From a virus (taxonomy: Duplodnaviria > Heunggongvirae > Uroviricota > Caudoviricetes): DNA of 64,000 bases. The notes below the pieces were generated by a model. That model did not search any database, was not told the origin of the DNA, and saw only the letters and a list, made by a program, of their open reading frames with translations. The stretch is from the IMG/VR virus record IMGVR_UViG_2854395284_000002, positions 27,638-91,637 of that record. The stretch is one strand, 5' to 3'. Positions 260-57,890 of this stretch are shown piece by piece. Positions within the stretch are counted from its first letter, which is position 1, and the number at the start of each line of letters is the position of its first letter. A program made the translations under genes and the position numbers.

Positions 260-1867
260 TTAATCCACCTCCGAAAGTACATCGCATACTGCTTTTAGTA
301 CAAATTTTCTACCTAAAAATCCACTATCCAGACTACATACGGCTTCGAATTCATCATTCATAGTGCTATGATCCTCCATATCATCAAATGAACCGTCGAA
401 GTTCCATTTGATAATCTGCAAGTAATCATTCGGTTTTAGAACTAAATGCTTATAATCACTCATCTGACCAATTTCGTAATCACAAATATTATCCATATAA
501 GCTCTTACTGGTTTAAAATTTGTGCCAGAAATACGATCAATCTTTTTGATATTCTCTATTAATCGTCTGGTAATATCTTCGACATCAATTTGAATATCAA
601 TGTCAATTGTTGGTTCTTTAAACTCTGGAAGGTTTGTTTCGACATAAGACAAGAAATTGTTAAGATCTGATTTTTTGATTTGAATACCCGATGCAAGTTC
701 ATGCCCATCTGCTTTTGCATAACCACTATCATTGCAGATTTTTCGAAAATCATCAACACCTACGGCTCTCATAGAACCTGCGTATTTTGATCCGACATCT
801 TTCAACACTAAGATCGGCTTTTGATACTTTTCTAGTAGCTTATTTCCTAATAAACCAGCAATACCATATTGTGTATCAATATATACAGTGATTACCTTTT
901 GATCCTTTTGTTTCTCACATTGTTCATAAACATTCGGCAGTAAACGCTCCACTTCTTGATTTTGTTCTTCCTTACATTTCTTTAATGCTTTTACATAGGC
1001 AAGCACTTGTTTGTTATTATCTTCTAGAAATGCATTCATAGCAGTTTCATTTTCACCCATACGGTTCGCTGCATTTACAATTGGAGCAATACTAAATGCA
1101 ATTGCCGTACTGTTGAATTCAAATCCGCCGACAATCTTCTTAACTGCTGGATTATAAATCTTCTCAAGTCCTTTCGACACGATATAACGGTTTTCCATAA
1201 CTGTCATATCCATCATATCTCCAACTAGACCACATGCCGCAAGATCTACTAATTCATCTGCATAATCTGTAAGAAATTGTTCATCCAAATATTTACAGAA
1301 TTTCCATACCACCCCTGCTCCAGATAATTGCGAATTATCATAATCTCTTTGAGAAGAAATAAGAATTGTATATGTATCATATGGAATTTCCCGTTTAATT
1401 GCATGATGGTCTAAAATAAGTACATCGATTCCTGCTTCTGACAATTCTTTATACTGAATTTCGTCTTCGTCTAAACTATCTACAACAATCAATAAATCTA
1501 AAGATGCAAACTGCTGCAAATTTTGTCCTTTTAGTCCATGCTGCTTACCGTCATCAATATATGTAAAAATATCGTCTGTAAAATATCTCAAATATCGTGT
1601 CATAATCGTTCCTGCCGCGATTCCATCAGTATCTGTATCAAATAAAATACCAATGTTTTCGTTTTCTTCAATTGCCCGATTAATACGTATGTATGCTTCA
1701 TCAATCCTATATAAAGAATCCAGTGGAAGTAAATCTTCTTCTATTGGATTTAAAAAATGTTTCGCATCTTGAACTCCTCTTTGTTGAAGAATCGTATCAA
1801 ATACTTCATCCTCATACATTCCTCTACAATCGTTTAAAATATTATAATTCTTCTTCGTCCTTATCAT
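260..1867 (-). CDS. recJ: RecJ-like single-stranded-DNA exonuclease (DHH/DHHA1 phosphoesterase)
   Basis: 535 aa. DHH-family motifs DTDTDGIAAG, LILDHH and GAGVVWK, characteristic of RecJ. Confidence 0.8.
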   Translation of the reverse strand: MIRTKKNYNILNDCRGMYEDEVFDTILQQRGVQDAKHFLNPIEEDLLPLDSLYRIDEAYIRINRAIEENENIGILFDTDTDGIAAGTIMTRYLRYFTDDIFTYIDDGKQHGLKGQNLQQFASLDLLIVVDSLDEDEIQYKELSEAGIDVLILDHHAIKREIPYDTYTILISSQRDYDNSQLSGAGVVWKFCKYLDEQFLTDYADELVDLAACGLVGDMMDMTVMENRYIVSKGLEKIYNPAVKKIVGGFEFNSTAIAFSIAPIVNAANRMGENETAMNAFLEDNNKQVLAYVKALKKCKEEQNQEVERLLPNVYEQCEKQKDQKVITVYIDTQYGIAGLLGNKLLEKYQKPILVLKDVGSKYAGSMRAVGVDDFRKICNDSGYAKADGHELASGIQIKKSDLNNFLSYVETNLPEFKEPTIDIDIQIDVEDITRRLIENIKKIDRISGTNFKPVRAYMDNICDYEIGQMSDYKHLVLKPNDYLQIIKWNFDGSFDDMEDHSTMNDEFEAVCSLDSGFLGRKFVLKAVCDVLSEVD

Positions 1868-12801: not shown

Positions 12802-13620
12802 TTACTGTTTGTTATTTAGCCAATCTTTGTATGGTCTCAAAAGCTCTGTATATAGTTCTTCGTCAGTCATTCTGTTCATGTTTTTGACTGCGATAAATCC
12901 AGTGTTGTCACATTTTCTACCCTTCATATCATCCAGAGATCTCAGATAACTAAAATTCTCATTTCCAATGCCAACAAACTGTACAAACATATTGTAATTA
13001 GAAAGCTCTTTCACAATTTTATTTGTTTCGTCTGTATCCCAATTTTCACCATCTGTAATAAAAATGATAAATGCTGGAATTGTACTTGGCTCAATATCCT
13101 TATAATAGGAAACAATATCTTTCAAGACTGGAGCGTAATTAGTTCCACCCATACTCATATGAGAATTCATCATAATTTTTCGAACATAGTTCTTATAATT
13201 ATCAATTGTCACTGGTTTCAAAGAATCAAAATCATTTGAAAATAGCCAAGATTCTAACTCCCCATTATCATCAAATTTAAGAGCGATTGGCAAAAGTCTT
13301 GTAATTACATCTTGTACAGATCCGTTTCTAAAAAGATTACCCATACTTCCAGAGTAATCCATAGCGAGCGCAACCCTTGCTTGATGCTTAGTCATATCAA
13401 TTTTGCTTGATTTCGACATATTAATTAGCACATTATTTAAATTTTCTGCTGACTTAGACATATCAATTACAACTTGCTGCGCTGTATTTTCTTCATGTAC
13501 CACAGCGGATGTATTATCCGCCATAGTATTTGTTGTTGTAGTCTTTTTTCCAAAAAGTTTGTCAAATAGTCCCATGATTTTTATTCTCTCCTTTGATAAA
13601 TAATTTTCGAATAACATCAA
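12802..13620 (-). CDS. von Willebrand factor A (vWA) domain protein, TerY-like
   Basis: 272 aa. MIDAS motif AMDYSGSM and TDGE. N-terminal region has a TerD-like strand motif (VIDMSKS..INMSKSSKIDMTK). The true start is possibly the internal Met (MGLFDKLF, about 13575). Confidence 0.65.
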   Translation of the reverse strand: MMLFENYLSKERIKIMGLFDKLFGKKTTTTNTMADNTSAVVHEENTAQQVVIDMSKSAENLNNVLINMSKSSKIDMTKHQARVALAMDYSGSMGNLFRNGSVQDVITRLLPIALKFDDNGELESWLFSNDFDSLKPVTIDNYKNYVRKIMMNSHMSMGGTNYAPVLKDIVSYYKDIEPSTIPAFIIFITDGENWDTDETNKIVKELSNYNMFVQFVGIGNENFSYLRSLDDMKGRKCDNTGFIAVKNMNRMTDEELYTELLRPYKDWLNNKQ

Positions 13621-16177
13621 CCACGATTACAGTGAGTGATAGTCCAATGATTGCGATCCACTGACTCATATTCATTGCTGTTGCCTGGATAAGTCCGCCG
13701 AGTGCATTACATAAAGCAATAGTTCCAAGTACAATACCTGCTGCAATATATACAAATGTTTTATTGTTTTTCAGTCCATTGAGCAAATTAATATGTTCTG
13801 TACGAATACCAAATCCATTGCATACAGACATGATGCAAAGCATTGCAAATCTTGCAGTCATAGCTTCGACATCTGTTGTAAATAATTTTGATACTGGTGA
13901 AAACATAAGAATTCCATATAGTACAATAAATGTTACTGTGCTAATAGTAATTCGTTTCTTTGCACCTCGAATAAACAATCCAGAACCCTTCTTAATTGGA
14001 TTCTCTGTCATATATTCAGCTTTCGGAGGTTCCCCGCCAAATGACAATGAATTAAGTGAATCCATGATAATATTGATAATCAGAATCTGAACGGAAGCTA
14101 GTAATGCTCCGCCAGATAAAATAGGAAATAGAATACTTAAAACCAGAAGTGAAAAGTTGATTGGCAACTGAAACTCCAAAAACATCATGATATCGTGCAT
14201 AAATGTTCTACCAAGTTCCACGCCTCTAATAATACTTGCGAAGTTATTGTCTGTTAGAATAATATCGGATGCTTCTTTTGCAACATCTGTTCCAGCTTCC
14301 ATGCCAAAGCCTACATCCGCTTTCTTTAAAGCAGGAGAATCATTTGTCCCATCTCCCGTCATTCCAACAGATCTACCAAGCTCCTGTGCAAGACTTACAA
14401 GTCTAAGCTTTGTATTAGGAGAGCATCTGGAAATAACTCTAAGAGTTGGAATAATCTTCTTAATTTCATCATCAGACATTGCCTCGAACTGTGCATTTGT
14501 AAGAGCAAGATCCCCTTCTTTATAAATACAAGCTTCTGTCGCTACTGCTACTGCAGTCTCATGGCAATCACCAGTAATTTCAATAACTTGAATACCTGCT
14601 TCATGCGCAATCTGTACAGCCTGTGGAACTTCTTTTCTTACTGGATCAACGACGCCAATAATTCCTAGAAATACCATATCATCTGGTAATGTATTCTCAA
14701 CAATGTTCCCATTCGCCATCGCCAATGCGATGCAGCGCATGGATTTTTTCGTCATTGATTTGATAACATTTAAAAGTCTCTCTTTATCTTGTTTATTAAA
14801 CGCTACAGGCTCTGAAATTAACATTTTAGAACAATGTTCGATAAGTTTCTCTGGCGCACCTTTATAATAGGAAATTCCGCTCTCAGACGTACAGGAAGAG
14901 TACTTATATTCACTTTGAAATACCTGTTTCATAATAATTTTGTTGTTTTTCTGAATGTCAAAAAACTCAGTAAAATCAACGTATTTTAAGATTGCTCTGT
15001 CAATAGAGTTTCCGCCTGTGATATTATTCTCTGCATCATATGTGGCACTATTGTTCAAACAGATATTTTGTTTGATGCAATCCCAAAGATTAGTACCCTG
15101 ATCAACTTCATTGCCATATCCGTCAATGACAGTCGTAGGTGTCATAACTCCTGTTGTAAGAGTTCCTGTTTTGTCAGTACAAATTAGATCTACGTATGCA
15201 AGTTCTGGAATCTTGTTTGGATTTTTTGCAAGAATATTGAATCGTTCCATTGTCTTGACATTCTGTTTTGTAACAAGCTTGATAATTAATGGAAGTCCTT
15301 CTGGAACAGCAGCCACAATGATTGTTAGAGCAACCGAAATATTCTGTGCAATCTTTTGGATAACTTCTAGCACACCACCATTGATATATTCCCTGAATCC
15401 AATATGCGCAATATCCGTTACCATCAGTGCAATAAACGTGACGACTGCAGCAATCGTTCCATATCTCGAAATTGTATCACAAAGTTTATCGATCGCAATC
15501 TGAAGTGCTGTTTTAGGTGGCTCAAGTGTCTGCATTTTTACAAGTGTGTCACCATTTATGGTGTTTACGCCAACTTCGCCTACGATCATCTTTCCTTCGC
15601 CAGACAGAATCGTTGTTCCAGCAAATAAGCTATTTTGATTCGTAAAATCATCGGTGGATGTTGATTTTTTGTATACATAACCATTAATTGGAATTTTCTG
15701 ACATTCTTTACTTTCTCCGTTGATAGCAGCATTGCTTACAGAAATTTTACCCTCAATAATATATCCATCCGCGTAAATTTCCTGTCCAGTTCCAATACAA
15801 ACCACATCACCAACAACTAAATTATCTTTGTTGATTGTCTGAACTTGCCCATCTCTGATAACATCACAATACCTAGTTGATGTCTTTGCTCTTAGTTCTT
15901 GTGTTGATTTTTGAATACCAAGCGCCATTTTTACACCAATATATGTACATAATGAAATAACTAAAATCACCATGATTGGTTCTGAAAATGATGCCAATCC
16001 AAATACTGCAGCGAAAATCCCATATGCAGATAATGCTAATAACAGCATCAGCGTTTTATCACCAAAGATATTTTCAATCGCAAATTCATACCACTTTTTA
16101 AGTTTTGGTTCTGGTAGTTTGTTTGAGCCATATTTTTCCCGACTCATTTTTACTTGTTCGTTTGTTAGTCCTTTCAA
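13562..16177 (-). CDS. P-type cation-transporting ATPase, P2 (Ca2+-ATPase-like)
   Basis: 871 aa. Phosphorylation motif ICTDKTGTLT, plus TGDCHETA and TGDGTNDSPALKKADVGFGM. N-terminal LTNEQV..YGSNKL as in Ca/cation pumps. Ten predicted TM helices. Confidence 0.85.
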   Translation of the reverse strand: MKGLTNEQVKMSREKYGSNKLPEPKLKKWYEFAIENIFGDKTLMLLLALSAYGIFAAVFGLASFSEPIMVILVISLCTYIGVKMALGIQKSTQELRAKTSTRYCDVIRDGQVQTINKDNLVVGDVVCIGTGQEIYADGYIIEGKISVSNAAINGESKECQKIPINGYVYKKSTSTDDFTNQNSLFAGTTILSGEGKMIVGEVGVNTINGDTLVKMQTLEPPKTALQIAIDKLCDTISRYGTIAAVVTFIALMVTDIAHIGFREYINGGVLEVIQKIAQNISVALTIIVAAVPEGLPLIIKLVTKQNVKTMERFNILAKNPNKIPELAYVDLICTDKTGTLTTGVMTPTTVIDGYGNEVDQGTNLWDCIKQNICLNNSATYDAENNITGGNSIDRAILKYVDFTEFFDIQKNNKIIMKQVFQSEYKYSSCTSESGISYYKGAPEKLIEHCSKMLISEPVAFNKQDKERLLNVIKSMTKKSMRCIALAMANGNIVENTLPDDMVFLGIIGVVDPVRKEVPQAVQIAHEAGIQVIEITGDCHETAVAVATEACIYKEGDLALTNAQFEAMSDDEIKKIIPTLRVISRCSPNTKLRLVSLAQELGRSVGMTGDGTNDSPALKKADVGFGMEAGTDVAKEASDIILTDNNFASIIRGVELGRTFMHDIMMFLEFQLPINFSLLVLSILFPILSGGALLASVQILIINIIMDSLNSLSFGGEPPKAEYMTENPIKKGSGLFIRGAKKRITISTVTFIVLYGILMFSPVSKLFTTDVEAMTARFAMLCIMSVCNGFGIRTEHINLLNGLKNNKTFVYIAAGIVLGTIALCNALGGLIQATAMNMSQWIAIIGLSLTVIVVDVIRKLFIKGENKNHGTI

Positions 16178-16267
16178 TTTTACACTCCTTTTCTATTTGT
16201 TTTAGAACATTTATAACAAAGATGAGTCAAAAATAATAATGACCATCTTAGTCATACTTATTTATTC

Positions 16268-16690
16268 TCAATCTATAACCACATTTATCGGATATAAGTG
16301 ATCCTTGCAATATTCCAGAAAATCATCTGCTGTCAAATAATTCTTCATCCCATTTAAAGTCATATTCTCTATAACCTCTGCATCTAACGAATATGAAAAA
16401 CATGGATTTTCTTTATATAATTCAAAACTCTTATGTTCATAATCATCCCAACTTCCATAAAAGGAATTGATAATACTATCTATTTTTGAAACAGGATATC
16501 TTTTTTCGTATAATAATTTTGCTTGTTTTTCTGACTCGGTATAAATGTATTTTTCTCTTCCTGTCACATGATGATAGCAAATTTCCTTTTCATATCTTGT
16601 TCTATTAAGAAATATATCCATAGAAGATGTTTCTTTTCTTTTATGTGCATTGAATCCTTGCGTCAATGTCACTTTGTATATTTTCTTCAT
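16268..16690 (-). CDS. hypothetical protein
   Basis: 140 aa ORF. Confidence 0.45.
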   Translation of the reverse strand: MKKIYKVTLTQGFNAHKRKETSSMDIFLNRTRYEKEICYHHVTGREKYIYTESEKQAKLLYEKRYPVSKIDSIINSFYGSWDDYEHKSFELYKENPCFSYSLDAEVIENMTLNGMKNYLTADDFLEYCKDHLYPINVVID

Positions 16691-16974
16691 TTCTGTATTC
16701 TCCGAACTTCTAACAAACTGTCATCGTTTTCTTCTTTAAGTTGCTCCAAGTCTTTCCAAATCGCATACCCTGAATCATTTTCACCACAGTAATAATGTTT
16801 CTCCCCATTAATTATTCTCCAATATTTCCTATTGGTTTTATAGTAAACTCCATCTTTTGCAAATTCTTCTTTTGTGTACGAAGCAATTATTTTATCATTG
16901 ATAGGAAAACTAATCTCTACGAAATCTATTCCATCAGCATTAATGCTGTCCATATACTCTAACAATTCTTTCAT
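16687..16974 (-). CDS. hypothetical protein
   Basis: 95 aa ORF. Its ATG directly abuts the stop of the frame-broken upstream ORF (TAAATG). Confidence 0.45.
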   Translation of the reverse strand: MKELLEYMDSINADGIDFVEISFPINDKIIASYTKEEFAKDGVYYKTNRKYWRIINGEKHYYCGENDSGYAIWKDLEQLKEENDDSLLEVRRIQK

Positions 16975-17183
16975 TTACTCATTCTCCATCTCATATGGTG
17001 TATATTCATAAGGTTTTCTGTATTCCAAAATCCTATATACCCTGTCAGAAAAATCATGCAGCCAAGTTTCTAAATCTGCATTGCATCCTCATGTATCTCA
17101 CCTCGCTTTATCGCATTCATGAAAATTTAAAAGCATCTGATACTTATATTCTCCAAATCTTTTCTTCCAACGTTCTTTTTGTT
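16975..17183 (-). pseudogene. frame-broken small ORF (possible remnant 3' part of the disrupted Pnk-like gene)
   Basis: A 209-nt ORF-poor segment. Frame 1 gives MNAIKRGEIHEDAMQI-stop. Frame 3 gives ...CNADLETWLHDFSDRVYRILEYRKPYEYTPYEMENE-stop and ends translationally coupled (TAAATG) to gene 16687..16974. Confidence 0.3.
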
Positions 17184-18017
17184 TTAATATTTATACTTCC
17201 ACTTATACCCTTTGCACAAAACATCTTTTTCGCATGATTTTATTATTCCAGACAAACCTTTTAGCCCTACTGATTTTGCCGCATCTGTAATTGATGCAAA
17301 TTCTTCAATAAAATTATTGTTCTCATCACATTTCATAACTGCTTTCTTTTTATTTGCCATCGTCGCTTTATATTCTCCGATATTACCTTTTTTCTCAAAA
17401 CTCCATCTATAATTATTTGCAGATTGTTGAGAGCCATTTAAACATAAACTTATATCTGTATTTCTTGTTCCTGTTTTTCTTCCGGCTTCAGCAATTGACC
17501 AAAATTCATCTATATATTCGCCATCCATTTGATATCTATATACAGTTTTGCCCCTAGTCTTTGAAGCAGACGAAAATCCTCTTCTCTTGCTTTCTTCAGA
17601 TGAGTATTTATCATAACCTTCCAAAATATGAATAATTTGATATTTTCCATGTTTAGTTATTTCATGAATGTCTTTAATAGTTTTTCCTTCATCCCACAGA
17701 CGATATATATTTGCTCTATCAATTGTATTTTTTAATGTATCTCCACCAATTGTTTGATTGTAACCATCGTTGTATGTATCGTAATATTCTATCCAATAAA
17801 TTTCTCGTTCGTTTAATTCTTCTTGTGAACATTCTTCTAAAACAATTAATTCAAAATTACTTTCACCATATTTTCTTATTGCCTTATGAATTGCCATATT
17901 GTAAGCTTTTTTGTTTACTTGTGCATTATATGATTCACTCAAATGATTTCTATATCTATACCATATATCTATACTTTGACCTATATATTTTTTATCGTTT
18001 ATTTTATTGCGTATCAT
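17184..18017 (-). CDS. GIY-YIG homing endonuclease with NUMOD-type DNA-binding modules
   Basis: 277 aa. N-terminal KYIGQSIDIWYRYRNH is a GIY-YIG motif (YIGQS ... R ... H). C-terminal repeats ANNYRWSF and GYKWKYKY are typical of I-TevI/Seg-like enzymes. Confidence 0.75.
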   Translation of the reverse strand: MIRNKINDKKYIGQSIDIWYRYRNHLSESYNAQVNKKAYNMAIHKAIRKYGESNFELIVLEECSQEELNEREIYWIEYYDTYNDGYNQTIGGDTLKNTIDRANIYRLWDEGKTIKDIHEITKHGKYQIIHILEGYDKYSSEESKRRGFSSASKTRGKTVYRYQMDGEYIDEFWSIAEAGRKTGTRNTDISLCLNGSQQSANNYRWSFEKKGNIGEYKATMANKKKAVMKCDENNNFIEEFASITDAAKSVGLKGLSGIIKSCEKDVLCKGYKWKYKY

Positions 18018-18035
18018 ATATATTCCACAATAAAT

Positions 18036-18146
18036 TTTTCTTTTTGTTATTTATTATTCATCTCCTTCTTTGGATTATTTTTTACAATTTCTTTTGCTAC
18101 ACTTGATTTTCCACTTCCACTCAGCCCGCACATAACCCAAAGCGTA
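18036..18146 (-). pseudogene. truncated N-terminal fragment of a polynucleotide-kinase-like P-loop kinase (AAA_33/Pnk-like)
   Basis: 36-codon ORF MNRPTLWVMCGLSGSGKSSVAKEIVKNNPKKEMNNK-stop. Walker A GLSGSGKS, and it resembles the T4 Pnk N-terminus ([20 protein letters not shown]). The start is translationally coupled (TAATG) to the upstream gene. It stops 18 nt before the homing-endonuclease ATG. Confidence 0.45.
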
Positions 18147-18156
18147 GGTCTATTCA

Positions 18157-18681
18157 TTATGCAAAACATTCTTTCGTAAAATCATAACCATCCTTATCAT
18201 GGAAATATAATGGTTCTCTGCTTTCATCAATATATCTTCTTTCGCTATAAGGATCTAATTTATGATACTCTACATGGTCATATGGCATTTTAATGTCATA
18301 ATCATCTTCTGTAGACTCAACAAGATAATCTCTACCACCAAATATATGATTCGGAATACCTTCTGGAATATGTTTCATATACTTTGGTTCTCTATTTACA
18401 TGGCTAGTAAATTCTTCTTTCAGCCCTTCGATAGTATACTGTTTGCCATACTCATCAAAAATTTCAATATCCATTCTATGAAATTCTAAGAACTTCAGCA
18501 TATCTTCTACTGATTTATAAGCATTACCGTGCCACTCAAACAAAGGTTTCCAACCATAACTCAGTTTCATGATATGCACTTCATATCCAAAATAAGGTGA
18601 ATCTGTAAGCTCGTACTCATTGTCAAAATACTTTGTCACAAGTTCCTTATCTTTTATCATCATATAATAATTTGTCCCCAC
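18157..18681 (-). CDS. hypothetical protein
   Basis: 174 aa ORF. Confidence 0.45.
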   Translation of the reverse strand: MGTNYYMMIKDKELVTKYFDNEYELTDSPYFGYEVHIMKLSYGWKPLFEWHGNAYKSVEDMLKFLEFHRMDIEIFDEYGKQYTIEGLKEEFTSHVNREPKYMKHIPEGIPNHIFGGRDYLVESTEDDYDIKMPYDHVEYHKLDPYSERRYIDESREPLYFHDKDGYDFTKECFA

Positions 18682-18774
18682 GTTCTCACCACCCTTTGTA
18701 AACTAATCTCTTATCCAGACTCCAGTAATTGCAAGTCCATTATCAGACTCTACAGTTAAATCAGCTATTCATCA

Positions 18775-19284
18775 TTAACACAATTCCCACCAGAAATCAT
18801 ATAATTTATGAGCCATATTACCTTTATGTAATTCGCCCTTATATCTACGAATCTTTCTATTTGATTGCTGCTTAAAATACTTGCTACGTTTTCCACGATA
18901 CCATCTTTTATAATATGGTTTAGTGTTCTGAACATAACCATGTCCATTAATCCTAATTTCATCCATATATCCAACTGGCGCAGGATAATAACCGCCAGCA
19001 ATTTCATATAGGTGCTTAAGATTATTTTGATGCTTCAAATATCGCTCGCGTTTAGTTCTTCTCTTTTTATTTGATTGAGTTTTAACAACATTTCCCATTC
19101 GAGAATATTCTTCGCAGCATCCCATATATCCTACTTTTCCACCAATCTTATCACACCAAATAGCTCGACAAATTTCCTCTTGTGACAAATCATCAAATAT
19201 TTCAGACACTTTCATATAATCTTCATATCCATAAGGACAATCACAGCACAACATTTTATTCTCCATCATACTTCCATGCAACAA
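18775..19284 (-). CDS. hypothetical basic Cys-rich protein (true start probably ATG at about 19254)
   Basis: 169 aa as listed. N-terminal CCDCPYG...CRAIWCD...GCCEEY, and a very basic C-terminus. The ATG at about 19254 lies 1 nt after the stop of the upstream TGA-interrupted gene. Confidence 0.4.
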   Translation of the reverse strand: MLHGSMMENKMLCCDCPYGYEDYMKVSEIFDDLSQEEICRAIWCDKIGGKVGYMGCCEEYSRMGNVVKTQSNKKRRTKRERYLKHQNNLKHLYEIAGGYYPAPVGYMDEIRINGHGYVQNTKPYYKRWYRGKRSKYFKQQSNRKIRRYKGELHKGNMAHKLYDFWWELC

Positions 19285-19516
19285 CTTTATTTCTTACAGC
19301 CTTTCTTCGTACACCTGTCCCATAGGAATACCACACTTCTTCATCCGTCTTCCATTTAAAATCTCTTGTTCTTGCACATTCAGCAATGAAATAAGCTCCA
19401 TTTTTTGTTTGAACAAGAACTTTTTCAGATAATCATCCTCTTGAACATTGCGAACAATAAGTCTCTTTCATATCAGGATATTTTTCTTTTAATGAAATCC
19501 AATCATTTTTATCCAT
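19256..19516 (-). other. 86-codon gene interrupted by a single in-frame TGA (pseudogene, recoding or selenocysteine candidate)
   Basis: RBS AAAGGGTGAT, then ATG at 19516. 27 codons MDKNDWISLKEKYPDMKETYCSQCSRG, TGA (19433-19435), then 58 sense codons with no Met, ending TAA. That TAA lies 1 nt before the next gene's ATG. Confidence 0.4.
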
Positions 19517-19581
19517 AATGATCACCCTTTAAAATTGTACTTTTGTATAATTGCTTATTCTCCGAAAGAATCTGGACAAGC

Positions 19582-27526: not shown

Positions 27527-27766
27527 TTATATTCTCTCATTCCATTTTCGAATTGCTTCGCATTTTGTTTTATCGTGTTCCTCTTCTTTTCTATAAGTAT
27601 CTACACTACACGTTCCGCCTCTAGCATGACACTTATTGCAAATCACAAAATATGCAACTTTCGAATATCTTGTCTTTTGACCAATTCTTAATTTAGTCCA
27701 CCCGCAGAACGGGCATGGTTTTAATTCTTTTTCTTTGATATTAATCATGTTTATCACTCCTATCAA
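27527..27766 (-). CDS. Lar-family restriction alleviation protein (zinc ribbon)
   Basis: 79 aa. LKPCPFCGW...CNKCHARG...AIRKWNER matches the Lar consensus (PCPFCG ... AWN-R). Confidence 0.55.
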   Translation of the reverse strand: MIGVINMINIKEKELKPCPFCGWTKLRIGQKTRYSKVAYFVICNKCHARGGTCSVDTYRKEEEHDKTKCEAIRKWNERI

Positions 27767-41907: not shown

Positions 41908-42407
41908 AGTTCAACATGAGTATCAAGTTCATTAAAAATCTTCTGTATCATTGAATATACTTCGTCCCAATCTGCTCCACCACGATCACAGCCGATCTTA
42001 TATGGCATAGCAATTGTTGCACTAAAATTATTGTTCCTTTCATGTGCTTTCCAACACATAGTTCTAAAACACTTTTCTAATGCTTCCAGAGAAGTATATT
42101 GTTTTCCGTCATATCCATAGTTATCTTGTGCAAAGAAATTACAAATCCACTGTTCATTACTTGGAATTGCAATCGATCCACAGTCGTATCCAATATATTT
42201 TGGCTTGACTGGTACAATTTGTACTTTCCCCAGCATATCCGATGATGCTACCTTTTTATATTCTTCGTATACATGTGGAAATCGCTGTCTGACCTGCAAA
42301 GCCACGCCAGATCCCATCTTTCCCATACAATTTACCTGATGACAAATAAATTTTGCATCCGTATCAAATAAATTTCCTTCGATAATTTCAATCATGATTT
42401 TCTCCAT
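41889..42407 (-). CDS. macro domain protein (ADP-ribose / Appr-1-pp binding or hydrolase)
   Basis: 172 aa. N-terminal IIEGNLFDTDAKFICHQVNCMGKMGSGVALQV matches the macro-domain binding-loop pattern (vNaaN...G.GGGVa.aI). Confidence 0.65.
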   Translation of the reverse strand: MEKIMIEIIEGNLFDTDAKFICHQVNCMGKMGSGVALQVRQRFPHVYEEYKKVASSDMLGKVQIVPVKPKYIGYDCGSIAIPSNEQWICNFFAQDNYGYDGKQYTSLEALEKCFRTMCWKAHERNNNFSATIAMPYKIGCDRGGADWDEVYSMIQKIFNELDTHVELWKLNQ

Positions 42408-43860
42408 TTAGTCTTTCACGAATCTCTTCAAAAGTCTGTTCTTTTACTAATTCTCCATCTTTAAAGACGAGTTTCAGTTCATTTTCTTCTGGCATTGTAT
42501 CTTCTGCATAACCATCATGACACACGAATTTATTTTCTTCTTTTACTACACAGCAAAGTCCTTTATGAGATTTCTTCAGATTATTTTTATCTGTTTTTGG
42601 ATTCTTCTGAATGGTATATTCTTTGCCATCAATTACACAATAAGTGCTCTTCATTGCAAATCCAAAAGTATCTCTTGTTAAGCAAACCATTCCATCTTCT
42701 GGCGTACACATTGCAGAGAAAGAAAACGCACCTACTCCAAAAAGAATCGCATCTGCTGCAAATCCTAATCCTTCAAGCTGTGTCCAAATCTCTTTGATCT
42801 TACTGTACTGACAACCATCTCCGTAAATGATTCCAATCTTTGGATTTAACTCCTTATAACCTTTTGAGTTTACAGTTCCACCAAAAATCTGATATAATTT
42901 CTGAACAGTTTTTACTGAAATTTCAACGATATCGCCGCTATCAGGACGTACAAGGAATTTGCCATTATGCTCTTCGATTTCTTTTCTCAGTTTTGGAAGT
43001 GTTTCGTCAATAAGGTTCCAGTAATCAAATGTATCAGAGACATAACTGAAAGATGTATTCTTATATGTATCAGTCAGTAATCTTCTTAACAGATTTTCTT
43101 CTGTCTCGCATACAGCCAGATTACTGCATACGGTTGCATGTTCCAGGCTAACTGCTCCAATACCAATATGGTTCTTAGCACAATCAGCATCGTACATTTT
43201 ATCAATATACTGAGTTGCAGGAATTGTAGAAGTTTTATTGAAAGATAGCAGCCATGAAGAACTTGCATGAACTCCGTTCTCAATGCCGAGTCCTCTGAAT
43301 CCAAAATCCGCCATAGCCATTGCAGGATTAGCACCATCTGTAGTTTTCTCGTAAAATTCATTTGCAAGTGTTTTATATTTATGACCTACAGTTGCCCAGT
43401 TGCATGTCCCAAAAATAAAAGACTGCATAATGCATTCCAGCCATTGTACCGTCCATGCGAAATCTGGATGTGCGTTACTCATCTCGATACACGGGACTCC
43501 CATTGTTACAACAGATCCTTCTGGAAGAGCTTTGATCTCTACAGGTAAATACTGCAGATCCCATAATTTTTCGATACGTCCAAGATCATAACTCTGAGAA
43601 CCGATCTGATTATCCAGATATTCTTTATATTCTGCAATAACTTCTTTTTTTGGTCTTTTGAAGAAAGTTTCATTTGCTAAATCAATCATATATTCCTTAA
43701 TAAAACCCTGTAATCCAAAGAATACAACTTCATTCAGATTTTTGAACATTGATTTTCTAGGAGTAATATAAGAAGTTAATTTTGTAAGACCCTTTGGAAG
43801 AGCATCAGGATTTGTATTTTTATATGTATCTGCCATCAGCATAAAAGAAATGTTTCTCAT
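42388..43860 (-). CDS. Nampt/NAPRT-family phosphoribosyltransferase (Nampt or Namat-type)
   Basis: About 490 aa from the ATG at 43860 (RBS GGAGGTC; the listed ORF starts further upstream at 43947 and overlaps prs). LMADTYKNTNP and ADFGFRGLGIENG match the Nampt N-terminal TDSYK motif and the FGFRGVSS motif. Confidence 0.75.
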   Translation of the reverse strand: MRNISFMLMADTYKNTNPDALPKGLTKLTSYITPRKSMFKNLNEVVFFGLQGFIKEYMIDLANETFFKRPKKEVIAEYKEYLDNQIGSQSYDLGRIEKLWDLQYLPVEIKALPEGSVVTMGVPCIEMSNAHPDFAWTVQWLECIMQSFIFGTCNWATVGHKYKTLANEFYEKTTDGANPAMAMADFGFRGLGIENGVHASSSWLLSFNKTSTIPATQYIDKMYDADCAKNHIGIGAVSLEHATVCSNLAVCETEENLLRRLLTDTYKNTSFSYVSDTFDYWNLIDETLPKLRKEIEEHNGKFLVRPDSGDIVEISVKTVQKLYQIFGGTVNSKGYKELNPKIGIIYGDGCQYSKIKEIWTQLEGLGFAADAILFGVGAFSFSAMCTPEDGMVCLTRDTFGFAMKSTYCVIDGKEYTIQKNPKTDKNNLKKSHKGLCCVVKEENKFVCHDGYAEDTMPEENELKLVFKDGELVKEQTFEEIRERLNGENHD

Positions 43861-43861
43861 T

Positions 43862-44692
43862 TTAGACCTCCATAACTGTGATTTTATCGTGTTTTCCTGT
43901 GAAAAGACTGTCTGTTGTAAATAATCTTTCAACTGTTCCATCTTCAAGTGATTTGATTAATGTTCCTTTTTCTCTATCAAGAACTGAATTTTCGGTATGT
44001 GATGCATAAGCATAAATTCTATCTACACCACGTTCTTTCAACGCTTTTGCACTATAATATAAAGAACCGCCATATGAAATGATGTCATCAATCATCAAAA
44101 CTTTTTTACCTTTAAGATCAATATCGTTATCTCTGATTTTGAGTCCAAGAATTTTTCCTGTATTCCAATCTCGATTTTTCTCACCATAGCAATACGGAAT
44201 GTCAGAAAACAATCCAGAATATCTTTTCGAACTGCCGGCATCCGGAAAATAAAGAATAAGATTTTCTTTACTAATCTGCTCAATTACTTCATCAATATAT
44301 TCTCTTGGATTAAAAACATATACTCTATTCAAAAGCGCTGCTCCAACATTACTATGAACATCAAGTACCTCTACTCTATCAAATTCGAGCCAATTAATAA
44401 CATCAGAGAACCCTTTTAATGTAAAAACCTCGCCCTGATCATGGATTCTGTCCATTCTGGCATTCGGAAGATAAAACATTGTAAGATCAATTGATTTAAT
44501 ATATGGAAAATTTTTTAAATGTTTTGTAATATAAATCAGCGCTGAAAGTTCTTCTTCTTTCTCATACTTCCATGTAATGTTGTTATATTTCTGATAAAAA
44601 CAATCGTCTAATACGATTCTCTGTGTTCCATCTGGAAAGTGTTCTACTTTTACTTCTTTCCCATTTAAAATGATCATATCTTTATTCTCCAA
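43862..44692 (-). CDS. ribose-phosphate pyrophosphokinase family enzyme (Prs or ADPR-pyrophosphate synthetase Adps type)
   Basis: 276 aa. HFPDGTQ (Prs FSDGE) and the PRPP-binding loop GKKVLMIDDIISYGGSLYYSAKALKERG. Its stop lies 1 nt before the ATG of the Nampt-family gene. Confidence 0.8.
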   Translation of the reverse strand: MENKDMIILNGKEVKVEHFPDGTQRIVLDDCFYQKYNNITWKYEKEEELSALIYITKHLKNFPYIKSIDLTMFYLPNARMDRIHDQGEVFTLKGFSDVINWLEFDRVEVLDVHSNVGAALLNRVYVFNPREYIDEVIEQISKENLILYFPDAGSSKRYSGLFSDIPYCYGEKNRDWNTGKILGLKIRDNDIDLKGKKVLMIDDIISYGGSLYYSAKALKERGVDRIYAYASHTENSVLDREKGTLIKSLEDGTVERLFTTDSLFTGKHDKITVMEV

Positions 44693-46176: not shown

Positions 46177-47679
46177 TTACGCTGCATTTCCATTTTTAAC
46201 AAGATAATTCTCAAAATCACGCTTCATGAATCTGAAATTCACCCCCTGGTTGGAACTATATTCATCATCAGCACTCTGATATTCTCCGATCCACTGTTCA
46301 AATTCCTGATCTTGATTGTTCTGTGCTGCGTAAACCATAAGTGCAATTAATGCAGTTTTACACTGCTGATATACATTCACTGATACTTTTGTATCCTGAA
46401 GACATTCGTTATAAAATTCGATATCTTGCGGATCTACTTTTTCGTTTACATGCGTATGTACAAAATCAATATCATTTTGATCAATACTATCGTCAACGCC
46501 AATAATCTCAGGTTCTTCGTTTGCGGAAATTTCCGATGATTCTTTAGTACTTTCACACTCAATATCTTCATTAGTATTATTCTCTTCGATATGTAAAAAT
46601 TTCACTAACAATGTATGTAAATAGTCAATTTTCTGCCGAATCACTTTTTTATCTTTTGTATGCTTGTCTTGCTCAATCTCGATCCAGTCCGTATCATTTA
46701 CTTTGACTTCTTTCATATCATTAAAAGCTAACAGGAATTTTCCAAAATCTTCTACTGAAATTCCTTCATCCAAAGCTTTTTTCATGAGTGCTAACCATGC
46801 CATAAAATCTTTTGATACAAACAATTCTGCAACCTCTGTATGATCGAGTTTATCTGCATAAGGAATTAACATATTAAAATATTTATCCAGTGTATCAAAT
46901 TCTTCCGTCATTGCATTTTCATTGAGGAATTTACATATATCTCTTGGAGCCTTCTTCCATTCTTCCAAATGAAACATAGCCATGACACATTCGATAATTA
47001 CTCTTTCCCAAATTCCTTTCTTTTTATCTAATTCATTCAGCATTGTGCAATCTTTAAGAAAGCGATTTTTGTCTTTGATCTGTTTAACTCTATCAGCAAA
47101 TGTGCCAATATAAGTAAAAGCTTTCTGACTTACGTTCATTGGAATGGTTGAGTTGTATAACATAACCAAATCGCAAGTATCTTCTGGTGTACATTCCTGG
47201 TAAATTGCGGCAGATAACTGACATGATCTCATTCTCTTTTTTAACTCAGGAGGGAAATCATTGTACGTTTTGTTTACCAAATCAAATGTTTTTATTTCTT
47301 TAATCAGTTTCCCATTTTCATCTCTTATTGGCTTCCCGTTTTTGTCCAATTTATTTCCCTGATATGTTACGTATCTGTTCCGGATTGATTTAGAAATTTT
47401 ATGTCCATCAAAGATAAATCGTCTTAAGGCTTCTGTTCTCTGTCCACCATCTACCACATATGTGACAGTAATTCCATCCTCTCTTTTTTCTTCTGCAAGA
47501 ATAATATTTGGAATATAAATCCGTTTCTGAGATACAGTGCTGTAAATCAAATTATTGATCATCTCATTTGACCAGCAAAATGCTCTCTGAACCGCCTGAT
47601 CAACAGTGATGGTTTCTTCATCAACACTATCAACATAAGCTCCTACACCCATCTGTTCGATTCTGTATTCGTCTAACAT
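46177..47679 (-). CDS. DUF262 (ParB/sulfiredoxin-fold, GmrSD N-terminal-like) domain protein
   Basis: 500 aa. AVQRAFCWSNEMINNLIYST...YIPNIIL...YVVDGGQRTEAL matches the DUF262 DGQQR core. Acidic C-terminus. No HNH/DUF1524 module seen. Confidence 0.55.
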   Translation of the reverse strand: MLDEYRIEQMGVGAYVDSVDEETITVDQAVQRAFCWSNEMINNLIYSTVSQKRIYIPNIILAEEKREDGITVTYVVDGGQRTEALRRFIFDGHKISKSIRNRYVTYQGNKLDKNGKPIRDENGKLIKEIKTFDLVNKTYNDFPPELKKRMRSCQLSAAIYQECTPEDTCDLVMLYNSTIPMNVSQKAFTYIGTFADRVKQIKDKNRFLKDCTMLNELDKKKGIWERVIIECVMAMFHLEEWKKAPRDICKFLNENAMTEEFDTLDKYFNMLIPYADKLDHTEVAELFVSKDFMAWLALMKKALDEGISVEDFGKFLLAFNDMKEVKVNDTDWIEIEQDKHTKDKKVIRQKIDYLHTLLVKFLHIEENNTNEDIECESTKESSEISANEEPEIIGVDDSIDQNDIDFVHTHVNEKVDPQDIEFYNECLQDTKVSVNVYQQCKTALIALMVYAAQNNQDQEFEQWIGEYQSADDEYSSNQGVNFRFMKRDFENYLVKNGNAA

Positions 47680-56449: not shown

Positions 56450-57890
56450 GGGTATTTATTTCCATCTCTGATATATTTTGAAAAGGCACTGTGGATCTGT
56501 ATCTATAACTTTACAGCTTTGACTGGTATGAGGTGACTCAGACCACAGCTTTTCGTCTATTACTGTTAATCAGTTTGTTAACGCATCGACGTTTTTATTT
56601 ACGTGATTACACAGCCGAATTCTCTGTGGAAGACAGCAGTGCTCAAAATATTTATCAGGAGGTATAAACCTATGTCAATGTACTTTATTGGAATTGATAT
56701 TTCCAAGTACAAACATGATTGCTGCATCATTTCTGCAGCTGATCAAAAAGTAGTTTCTAAAGTCACAATCAAAAACAATAAAGCCGGCTTTAATGAACTG
56801 CTTACAATCATTCATTCTCTCGCAAATCCTGCAGACATAAGAATAGGGTTTGAATCAACTGCCCATTATGCTCTCAATCTTGAACTCTTCCTTGAAAATT
56901 CTCTCCTAACCTTCATGGAAGTAAATCCTGTTCTCATCAGTGAATACAAGAAATCAAAAACACTTAGGCGTACAAAAACCGACTCTGTTGACTGCGAATC
57001 AATAGCTCGTTGGTTAATGACTGTTGAATACAAACCCCATTCAAAAGGATTTTACCACGCTTACTCTTTAAAGTCATTAACTCGTTTACGCGATAAACTT
57101 ATCCGACAGCGTTCTTTCTATCTTATTAAAATCACAAATGTGTTAGATCATACATTCCCTGAGTTTAAACCATTCTTTAATGAACGCTTATCCAAAACTG
57201 CTCTTTATCTGCTTGAAAACTATGGTTCTGCTGAAAAGATGGCTCGTATGAACTCAGCCTCTTATGAAAAGCTACGTTCCTTATCCCGGGGGAAGTTTTC
57301 ACCACAGCAATTTCTACGACTAAAAGAACTTGCTGCCAATACTGTTGGTGTAAATAACTCTATTTTTGATGTAGAGCTGAACAGTCTTTTATCTTTATAC
57401 AAATCCCTTGTAAAAGAGATTAATACCATTGAAAAAGAAATCAACAAACTAATTGAAGAAGTACATCCTCACTATATGTCAGTTCCTGGAATCGGACCAT
57501 TATCAGCAGCTGTAATCTATTCTGAATACGGCGATATATCTAACTTCACTAATCCAGGACAAATGCTTGCATTTGCTGGAATAGAACCAGGAATCAACGA
57601 ATCTGGTACTGAATCTCACGGAGGTAAGATGGTTAAGCGTGGATCATCCCAGCTCCGCTACACACTTATCAATTGTTGTCTACCGTTAATCCGCTTTGAC
57701 ATGACATTTGCAACTTACTATGCCAAGAAACGCGGAGAAGGCAAACCACATCGAGTAGCCATTACTCATGTAGCCAAAAAGCTTATTAGAGTCATCTACG
57801 CATTGGAGAGGCAAGATATCGACTTTAATGCACAGAAACTTCGTTAATCTCTAGTGGATTAATACTAATTTCTCCCATCTGAAATACGAT
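56450..57890 (+). mobile_element. IS110-family insertion sequence, copy 2 (IS110-group layout; boundaries approximate)
   Basis: Higher-GC block of about 1.4 kb. Roughly 220-nt 5' non-coding region, then the transposase. Palindrome CCATCTGAAATACGATGTATTCAGATGG right after the stop. TTTCTCCCA occurs at both flanks. Confidence 0.55.
56672..57847 (+). CDS. IS110-family transposase/recombinase
   Basis: Start MSMYFIGIDISKYKHDCC with RBS AGGAGG (the listed ORF begins at an upstream GTG, 56603). Typical IS110 N-terminal GIDISK and C-terminal domain. Confidence 0.8.
   Translation: MSMYFIGIDISKYKHDCCIISAADQKVVSKVTIKNNKAGFNELLTIIHSLANPADIRIGFESTAHYALNLELFLENSLLTFMEVNPVLISEYKKSKTLRRTKTDSVDCESIARWLMTVEYKPHSKGFYHAYSLKSLTRLRDKLIRQRSFYLIKITNVLDHTFPEFKPFFNERLSKTALYLLENYGSAEKMARMNSASYEKLRSLSRGKFSPQQFLRLKELAANTVGVNNSIFDVELNSLLSLYKSLVKEINTIEKEINKLIEEVHPHYMSVPGIGPLSAAVIYSEYGDISNFTNPGQMLAFAGIEPGINESGTESHGGKMVKRGSSQLRYTLINCCLPLIRFDMTFATYYAKKRGEGKPHRVAITHVAKKLIRVIYALERQDIDFNAQKLR

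Follow-up and report, generated by a model that had tools for sequence, protein, structure and literature searches.

Free-standing homing endonucleases are usually seen as near-harmless passengers that lie between genes or in self-splicing elements. The RNA heal-and-seal pathway is used by phages against host tRNA-cleaving defences; T4 Pnkp joins a kinase to a DxDxT phosphatase, and C. thermocellum Pnkp joins a kinase to a metallophosphoesterase and a ligase. A further arrangement, an HD domain followed by a kinase, is that of Runella HD-Pnk (Munir & Shuman 2017, cited in PMC6097658). The free-standing seg and mob endonuclease genes of T4 are promoter-less cassettes that undergo intronless homing with co-conversion of flanking markers (PMC2988022). 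Endonuclease insertions may also leave split genes functional, as for mobE in nrdA of phage Aeh1, mobA in T4 gene 60/39, and seg in gene 43 of Aeromonas phage 25 (Friedrich et al. 2007; PMC2988022). Moreover, endonucleases can be interchanged at one locus, with SegH and Hef found in place of mobC and mobE (Sandegren et al. 2005), and in ICP1-like phages one position can be taken by endonuclease genes belonging to different classes (Barth et al. 2023, PMC10448857). Here, we describe a locus in a stretch of 64,000 nucleotides (nt) from a virus of the Caudoviricetes (IMG/VR record IMGVR_UViG_2854395284_000002, positions 27,638 to 91,637; this whole stretch is called the window), where a promoter-less, free-standing endonuclease cassette of the I-TevI type probably occupies the interior of a former gene for a polynucleotide 5'-kinase plus HD phosphohydrolase (kinase-HD) of ∼296 amino acids (aa).

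IMG/VR was queried with both genes neighbouring this locus, which returned 18 loci on phage contigs of ∼56 to 209 kb, nearly all from one metagenome, and later searches widened the sample to 93 distinct alleles from related phage contigs of ∼100 to 210 kb (loci are numbered L001 onward); the sample is non-random, as some loci were fetched with the endonuclease or the gene stubs as bait. Three contigs were identical to the window across this region, and the 200-kb contig IMGVR_UViG_3300045988_144546 matches the window fully here. In many relatives, the P-loop N-terminus and the sequence that follows the endonuclease are separated by ∼890 nt that contain no endonuclease, and this stretch is a single open reading frame (ORF) of 296 to 297 aa bounded by the same neighbour genes. 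About 73 of the 93 distinct alleles are intact, with ORFs of 291 to 313 aa (ten alleles of 298 to 309 aa, flagged by their C-terminus pattern, were counted as intact, being full-length). Cassette-bearing and intact alleles share one locus, that is, a presence/absence polymorphism at a fixed site.

Nucleotide alignment against the intact alleles mapped both junctions to ∼3 nt (coordinates are window positions, and all genes at the locus are on the minus strand). Homology starts at the ATG and ends at nt 89, the second base of codon 30 (18157..18069), and restarts at codon 270 (17184), continuing to the TGA stop at 17100..17098. By tblastn, the flanks match residues 1 to 28 (E = 2e-9) and 270 to 297 (E = 3e-12) of the intact 297-aa L009 protein, a fit that chance cannot account for, the C-terminal remnant being 93% identical to L009 residues 270 to 297. 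Codons 30 to 269, which make up 81% of the gene (∼715 nt), are missing, among them the catalytic Asp of the SSD motif, the remaining kinase fold, and the whole HD domain, and the surviving kinase-HD codons number 57 of ∼296. The event is a replacement, not a simple insertion, and the two stubs cannot yield an enzyme. The locus is laid out as follows:

18157..18681, minus strand: up174, a 174-aa gene with no function assigned, whose TAA stop overlaps the stub ATG as TAATG.
18069..18157, minus strand: kinase-HD N-terminal remnant of 89 nt (codons 1 to 29 plus 2 nt), with the Walker A motif GLSGSGKS retained.
18047..18157, minus strand: 36-codon stub ORF, MNRPTLWVMCGLSGSGKSSVAKEIVKNNPKKEMNNK*, made of the kinase remnant, then KKE from the cassette, then the displaced endonuclease start MNNK*.
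17185..18068, minus strand: endonuclease cassette of ∼884 nt in place of kinase-HD codons 30 to 269, with junctions good to ∼3 nt.
18059..18061, minus strand: the original endonuclease ATG, out of frame with the endonuclease body via a +2-nt indel just downstream.
17184..18050, minus strand: frame of the GIY-YIG endonuclease body, 288 codons from ATA, then a TAA stop.
17098..17184, minus strand: kinase-HD C-terminal remnant, the last 28 codons (KQKERWKKRFGEYKYQMLLNFHECDKAR) plus the TGA stop, without a start codon.
16975..17092, minus strand: gene X remnant, with its ATG at 17092, codons 3 to 37 open, and a TAA that abuts the next gene.
16687..16974, minus strand: dn95, a 95-aa gene with no function assigned and its ATG at 16974.

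A preliminary description of the window had placed a GIY-YIG endonuclease in the wreck of a P-loop gene of the polynucleotide kinase type, which is borne out by the uninterrupted gene at the same place in related phages and by the kinase homology of both flanks; the alignment to uninterrupted pnk-like relatives that it proposed is the one that located the junctions at nt 89 and codon 270. The 36-codon ORF that it noted upstream of the endonuclease is present and matches Pfam AAA_33 (positions 1 to 24, E = 4e-6), and its TAATG coupling to the preceding gene was correctly seen, the ATG overlapping the up174 stop. However, this ORF starts at 18157 and not at 18146, and its stop codon (18049..18047) lies 29 nt, rather than the 18 nt first given, before the endonuclease ATG at 18017. 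As for the proposal that the endonuclease inserted into and inactivated the kinase gene, the endonuclease does sit in the wreck, but codons 30 to 269 were replaced, and the gene may already have been dead, as deletions of the gene free of any endonuclease exist (described below).

Whether the 36-codon ORF might instead be a genuine small gene with its own function was considered, since it is translationally coupled to the upstream gene and every rearranged allele keeps a stub. This is very improbable. The part that comes from the kinase is no more than nt 1 to 89 of the intact gene, and a 29-residue Walker A fragment cannot make a nucleotide-binding fold. Moreover, the tails differ wholly from one kind of allele to the next: the window and L004 end in KKEMNNK* and L021 in KTN*, L014 carries an unrelated tail of 30 aa, and L176 and L137 have others.

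The other alternative offered in the preliminary description was an intron-containing or split ("genes-in-pieces") kinase that still gives a functional enzyme. Phage endonuclease genes are often intron-encoded, the endonuclease scores in the NCBIfam "group I intron endonuclease" subfamily, and functional split genes arising from endonuclease insertion are known (mobE in nrdA and mobA in gene 60/39). However, an Rfam scan of 16400-18800 on both strands at E values up to 10, which includes the group I intron scan that had been suggested, found no intron family and only chance-level snoRNA-type matches. Moreover, codons 30 to 269 are not present anywhere in the window, and the C-terminal remnant has no start codon. 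Because there is no intron signal and only 57 of ∼296 codons survive, we reject this reading as exceedingly improbable. The idea that the gene ends are specially conserved "linkers" was also dropped, as conservation reaches well upstream of the right junction through CFLINYHMMPF.

The intact protein of the relatives carries an AAA_33 kinase domain at residues 6 to 138 (E = 2e-25) and an HD domain (PF01966) at ∼182 to 273, with E values of 1e-5 and 4e-5 in L009 and L007, respectively; the HD domain of the L006 allele fell below the threshold. Its best solved relative is the C. thermocellum Pnkp kinase domain (E = 4e-13), with GSGKS and SSD aligned, and other structural matches are PSTK and Capnocytophaga Pnkp1, while the C-terminal half has weak similarity to the HD region of class II nucleotidyltransferases (CCA-adding/poly(A) polymerase enzymes). 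The top NCBIfam family for the kinase region is bacter_Pnkp (TIGR04075), with a score far under the cut-off set for the whole protein, since nothing beyond the kinase domain is shared, and PHROG 505 is annotated "polynucleotide kinase." In addition, large Bacillus phages (∼165 kb; Kirov, Tsamsa, and Thrax phages) carry homologues with ∼30% identity over 97 to 99% of the length, which are annotated as polynucleotide kinase and in some cases overlap an RNA ligase annotation. The preliminary description had likened the stub to T4 polynucleotide kinase, which holds for the P-loop kinase domain and no further: no DxDxT or HAD phosphatase family matched the intact protein, and the parent gene, a kinase plus HD, is not of the T4 Pnkp family because its second domain is HD and not a DxDxT phosphatase.

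The relatives usually carry an RNA ligase gene directly upstream of the kinase-HD gene, and three kinds were found:

L009-L016 (L009:3805-4974): PHA02142 OB-fold plus PF09414 (DRB0094-like) ligase.
L017/18 and L021 (L017:902-2209): divergent DRB0094-like ligase.
L007 (L007:6525-7850): ligase of the T4 RnlA type.

The parent gene is best read as the putative end-healing partner, with RNA ligase, of an RNA heal-and-seal pair. The three ligases found at this one position are non-orthologous; the sealing partner swaps and the healing enzyme is constant. No RNA ligase was found in the 64-kb window, and the window's contigs were not among the best 80 of 103 and the best 80 of 115 matches in two ligase-query scans. 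In L021/L022, the ligase gene (L021:1599-2902) is split into ORFs of 254 aa and 170 aa, compared with a single ORF of 434 to 435 aa in L177 and L017, and the heal-and-seal pair appears to be decaying as a whole in that lineage.

The ORF that occupies the wreck runs from its first ATG at 18017 to 17184 (277 aa), and its frame is open further up, from 18050, where it overlaps the stop codon of the stub. Read from 18050, the protein begins ITKRKIYCGIY-MIRNKINDKKYIGQS..., with the GIY motif at 18026..18018, and the first ATG, GTG, or TTG codon is Met12 at 18017, right after GIY and equivalent to residue 7 of I-TevI. With the N-terminal extension included, the protein matches Pfam GIY-YIG (PF01541) over profile positions 2 to 77 (E = 1.3e-8), and it scores 85.8 bits against NCBIfam TIGR01453, compared with a cut-off of 56.05. 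Alignment to I-TevI (1mk0, also 1ln0; E = 2e-6) revealed that the equivalents of Y6, Y17, R27, E75, and N90 are all present, and the C-terminal DNA-binding modules comprise NUMOD1 (E = 1e-6) and an I-HmuI NUMOD-like domain (E = 8e-6). By these matches, the protein is a predicted GIY-YIG homing endonuclease of the I-TevI type.

Comparison with relatives indicated how the start was displaced. A 72%-identical copy in L021/L022 sits in the same slot behind a P-loop stub and has a normal start, ATG AAT AAA ATA ACA (MNKITKRKIYCGIY), whereas the window and L004 read ATG AAT AAT/AAC AAA TAA CA and are 2 nt longer, the window form being ATG AAT AAT AAA TAA. The ATG at 18061, which closes the stub ORF (...KKE-MNNK*), is by this comparison the original start of the endonuclease itself, and no complete ORF with its own start covering the GIY strand is found in the window. 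A programmed frameshift from the displaced ATG was considered and rejected: it would require a -1 shift at AAU AAA UAA, and no X XXY YYZ slippery site is present. Translation might now begin at an ATA or ATT codon that follows the AAGGAG at 18067, through re-initiation past the stub TAA, or at Met12; alternatively, no endonuclease protein would be made in the window lineage. Window positions 18018..18061 and L021:2992-3035 are near-identical over the first ∼45 nt (one change plus the 2-nt indel) at an overall synonymous divergence of ∼1.1; possible causes are a constraint at the nucleotide level for initiating translation and a recent conversion.

Despite the displaced start, the endonuclease body is under purifying selection. 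Between the window and L004, both start-displaced, there are 18 synonymous and 17 nonsynonymous differences, with an omega (nonsynonymous to synonymous rate ratio) of 0.20 and a binomial p of 1.2e-5 versus neutrality, so that either the protein is still made or the constraint is a trace of very recent history. These values bear on the possibility that the whole locus is a decaying fossil whose endonuclease is a start-less, immobile pseudogene. Such a fossil would account for the +2-nt indel that cuts the ORF off from its ATG in the window and L004 lineages, for a first ATG placed after the GIY motif, and for the frameshift at codon ∼130 of the L003/L024 copy; moreover, the neighbouring gene X is likewise a remnant, and the adjacent RNA ligase is broken in L021/L022 (the intact ligase of L177 has 434 aa). 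Nevertheless, the omega of 0.20 was obtained between the two start-displaced alleles themselves, the frame is open over all 288 codons and keeps every catalytic residue, and synonymous divergence (dS) in the cassette is 10-fold under that of the flanking gene, which implies movement after the host genomes diverged. We therefore regard a fossil locus as possible and doubtful.

The dS between the window and L004 is 0.12 for the endonuclease and 1.2 for the adjacent up174, and nucleotide identity along the locus follows the same pattern, with 84% in up174, 79% in the N-terminal stub, 98% at the 5' end of the cassette, and 95% in the endonuclease body, and on the other side 91% in the C-terminal stub and 74% in the gene X stub. 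This island of identity indicates a recent transfer of the cassette between diverged genomes. In addition, over its first 53 nt the window stub shares 98% identity with the intact alleles L091/L106 of another lineage, compared with ∼85% with the L004 stub, a mosaic consistent with crossovers inside the stub. Close relatives of the endonuclease (≥72% identity) are all in this slot, and remoter ones are found in unrelated phages. The pattern agrees with what a cassette on the move between diverged genomes would leave, as in intronless homing with co-conversion.

Under a homing scenario, the endonuclease would cut the intact kinase-HD alleles of related phages during mixed infection, and the break would be repaired from the endonuclease-bearing allele with the two stubs as homology arms. 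Repair would copy the cassette in and drop the recipient's non-homologous middle of ∼715 nt, so that each homing event would turn an intact RNA-repair gene into a wreck, with the outer parts of the stubs keeping recipient-derived sequence. Expression would be obtained via the upstream operon, with the up174 stop overlapping the stub start (TAATG) and the stub TAA overlapping the first codon of the endonuclease frame. A scan of 16200-19400 found 17 promoter-like sites, compared with 20.7 expected, and 0 terminators; this absence of a promoter signal agrees with a promoter-less cassette and proves nothing.

The same slot has a second occupant. In L014-L016, the stub and the C-terminal remnant surround a different ORF of 237 aa (L014:5079-5792), which falls in PHROG 2081, annotated "HNH endonuclease" (E = 2e-52), and which contains by Pfam an I-HmuI NUMOD-like domain only, with no nuclease domain detectable in Pfam. 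It covers positions 29 to 250 of the 433-position PHROG 2081 profile and may be a truncated endonuclease that keeps just the DNA-binding parts. BLASTP between this ORF and the GIY-YIG protein detected no homology (E = 0.25), and within IMG/VR the ORF was found on these three contigs only, in the same slot. The two cassettes differ by 2 nt at the right junction, and on the left this ORF joins the stub somewhere between nt 72 and ∼92, compared with nt 89 for GIY-YIG; both cassette ORFs end in stop codons made of kinase-derived bases.

Besides these two cassettes, the following lesions of the kinase-HD gene were observed among the alleles:

L176/L206: endonuclease-free internal deletion, from nt ∼85 to codon ∼258.
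L234/L236 and L247: endonuclease-free internal deletions.
L137: N-terminal stub only.
L011, L118, L132, L148, L177, L184, L195, L220, and L240: frameshift or nonsense alleles.
L005: complete absence, with the 115-aa gene (gene X) directly after up174.

The kinase-HD gene is clearly dispensable under many conditions, and independent breaks or deletions of it have occurred many times in this phage group. Because the gene is lost by many routes, either the endonuclease or the deletion may have come first in the window lineage. That the gene was already dead by internal deletion, and that the cassettes colonised the wreck later, is in keeping with the frequency of other losses (endonuclease-free deletions, the L137 stub, at least nine frameshift or nonsense alleles, and the L005 absence), and the left end of the L176 deletion, at nt ∼85, is within ∼5 nt of the cassette junction at nt 89; moreover, the use of one slot by two unrelated ORFs would be easier with a pre-existing junction as the landing site. 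However, no empty allele with the exact nt 89/codon 270 junction was found in the sample, and the right end of the L176 deletion is ∼36 nt off, at codon ∼258. Near-identical cassettes lie in stubs of different intact-allele lineages, suggesting repeated entry into intact genes, and the endonuclease ORFs reach the right junction exactly, with the L004 and L014 stops drawn from kinase-derived bases. On balance, we consider prior death of the gene unlikely.

A further reading goes beyond the occupancy of the wreck, namely that the locus is a natural "knock-out drive," in which a homing cassette would delete most of an RNA-repair (anti-anticodon-nuclease) gene each time it spreads, propagating the loss-of-function allele, with the slot serving as a reusable landing pad. 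The junctions of at least two unrelated endonuclease-type genes agree to ∼3 nt, which on this view would make the Walker A-proximal and C-terminal sequences a preferred landing pad. We put this forward tentatively, as a possibility with less than even prospects.

Several observations weigh against the interpretation of the locus as a homing cassette in a former RNA-repair gene. The canonical start is lost and the first available ATG comes after the GIY tyrosine, the equivalent of I-TevI Y6, so the enzyme may be crippled by the start loss, and the sister copy in L003/L024 carries an internal frameshift at codon ∼130. An unrelated ORF fills the same slot within ∼3 nt in L014-L016, which a single simple insertion model fails to explain, and the same gene has suffered endonuclease-free deletions in L176/L206, L234/L236, and L247. 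Furthermore, ordinary homologous recombination in highly mosaic genomes could also give the identity island. The RNA-repair role of the parent gene is inferred from homology and gene neighbourhood. With these points taken into account, a promoter-less I-TevI-type cassette in the interior of the former kinase-HD gene is still the reading that we hold to be probable.

Downstream of the endonuclease, the stretch 17183..16975 is 209 nt long and holds only trivial ORFs of ≤28 aa, in agreement with the gap without an intact ORF that was reported earlier. This gap consists of two gene remnants, the kinase-HD C-terminus on the 5' side and the start of gene X on the 3' side. Its 3' open frame (17085..16978) had rightly been described as ending in a TAA that abuts the next ATG; however, the frame lies past the stop codon of the intact kinase-HD gene and represents the first 37 codons of gene X, not the kinase C-terminus. 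Gene X is a separate 115-aa gene in L004, L005, L006, and L017, starting ATG AGA TGC (MRCNTDLETWLHDF...), and an additional G (ATGAGGATGC) in the window, L009, and L012 throws its ATG (window 17092) out of frame. In the window, L009, L012, L011, and L014-L016, gene X ends after codon 37 and is fused straight to the 95-aa gene. Two adjoining genes are thus wrecked at this locus, and neither the 36-codon stub nor the 3' open frame should be annotated as a gene. The final GAGGTGA of the C-terminal remnant is the Shine-Dalgarno sequence of the following gene in intact relatives, and both remnant tails carry the next gene's Shine-Dalgarno sequence (GAGGTGA for kinase-HD and GGAG for gene X), a role that may account for the survival of their extreme ends.

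Of the neighbouring genes, up174 is kept at 75 to 100% aa identity in L001-L007 and had no Pfam or PHROG match, and the dn95 protein likewise matched no Pfam or PHROG family. In L006, gene X and the 95-aa gene are separated by a 105-aa gene (L006:7774-8091), and the same gene is found in the window at 19259..19558 on the minus strand, upstream of up174, with 82% aa identity to the L006 copy; its placement is local gene-order shuffling around the wreck. By blastn against 50,697 phage records, the locus had no DNA match among cultured phages, and its relatives there, at ∼30% identity in large Bacillus phages, are seen in protein comparison only.

Elsewhere, the window carries other cargo. An 871-aa P-type cation-transporting ATPase (13562..16177, minus strand) has E1-E2 ATPase, Cation_ATPase_N/C, and HAD hydrolase domains; it is an ion pump, which is unusual phage cargo, and it is found in relatives with 871 to 875 aa in L011 and L014 and as an N-terminal fragment at the L021 end. 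Two IS110-family transposase genes (DEDD_Tnp_IS110 plus Transposase_20) lie at 50283..51560 (minus strand) and 56603..57847 (plus strand); their mutual identity is 24% and they have no common flanking DNA, suggesting two different insertion elements or domesticated copies in one genome. In addition, the minus strand encodes a NAMPT/NAPRTase-like gene (NAD salvage) at 42388..43947, a protein with a GmrSD_N-like nuclease domain at 46177..47679, and a DHH-family phosphoesterase gene at 260..1867.

Since the gene as it was before survives in the relatives, one can read directly where the junctions fall, which codons were lost, and how the flanks are mosaic. The relatives also form a natural series of independent losses, with two cassette types, three deletions, many point lesions, and one absence, and this series shows that the RNA-repair pathway is conditionally dispensable in the phage group. 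Should the cassette still be mobile, what it spreads is a gene deletion and not a neutral insertion. Within an uncultured phage group, the locus clearly adds a new case of a well-known kind of element and amounts to fairly ordinary mobile-DNA damage to an accessory gene.

Compared with the systems known in other phages and bacteria, the parent gene resembles T4 Pnkp, C. thermocellum Pnkp, and Runella HD-Pnk in joining a P-loop kinase of the Pnkp clade to a phosphoesterase-type domain, with an RNA ligase adjacent. It differs from Runella HD-Pnk in its reversed order, kinase then HD, and from T4 Pnkp in that the 3' domain is HD rather than a DxDxT phosphatase; a role like that of T4 Pnkp/Rnl1 or of Runella HD-Pnk with its ligase may be inferred for it. 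The presence of two unrelated endonuclease-type ORFs (GIY-YIG and PHROG 2081) in one slot recalls the SegH/Hef and ICP1-like cases, whereas here the second ORF has no nuclease domain detectable by Pfam, the slot lies within a gene that has been deleted, and the junctions agree on both sides to ∼3 nt. Like the Seg (GIY-YIG) and Mob (HNH) genes of T4 type, the element is a promoter-less cassette in an existing operon, present or absent at a fixed site with mosaic, co-converted flanks, and it combines an I-TevI-type catalytic domain with NUMOD DNA-binding modules. Seg and Mob genes are normally intergenic, in contrast to this cassette, which lies inside a coding sequence with 81% of the gene gone and its own start displaced. 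The mobE, mobA, and gene 43 seg insertions come closest in this respect, as they also place a free-standing endonuclease gene inside a phage coding gene by a critical motif, here just past Walker A. Unlike those cases, in which the halves reassemble a whole protein, the kinase-HD gene retains 57 of ∼296 codons and has been destroyed rather than split.

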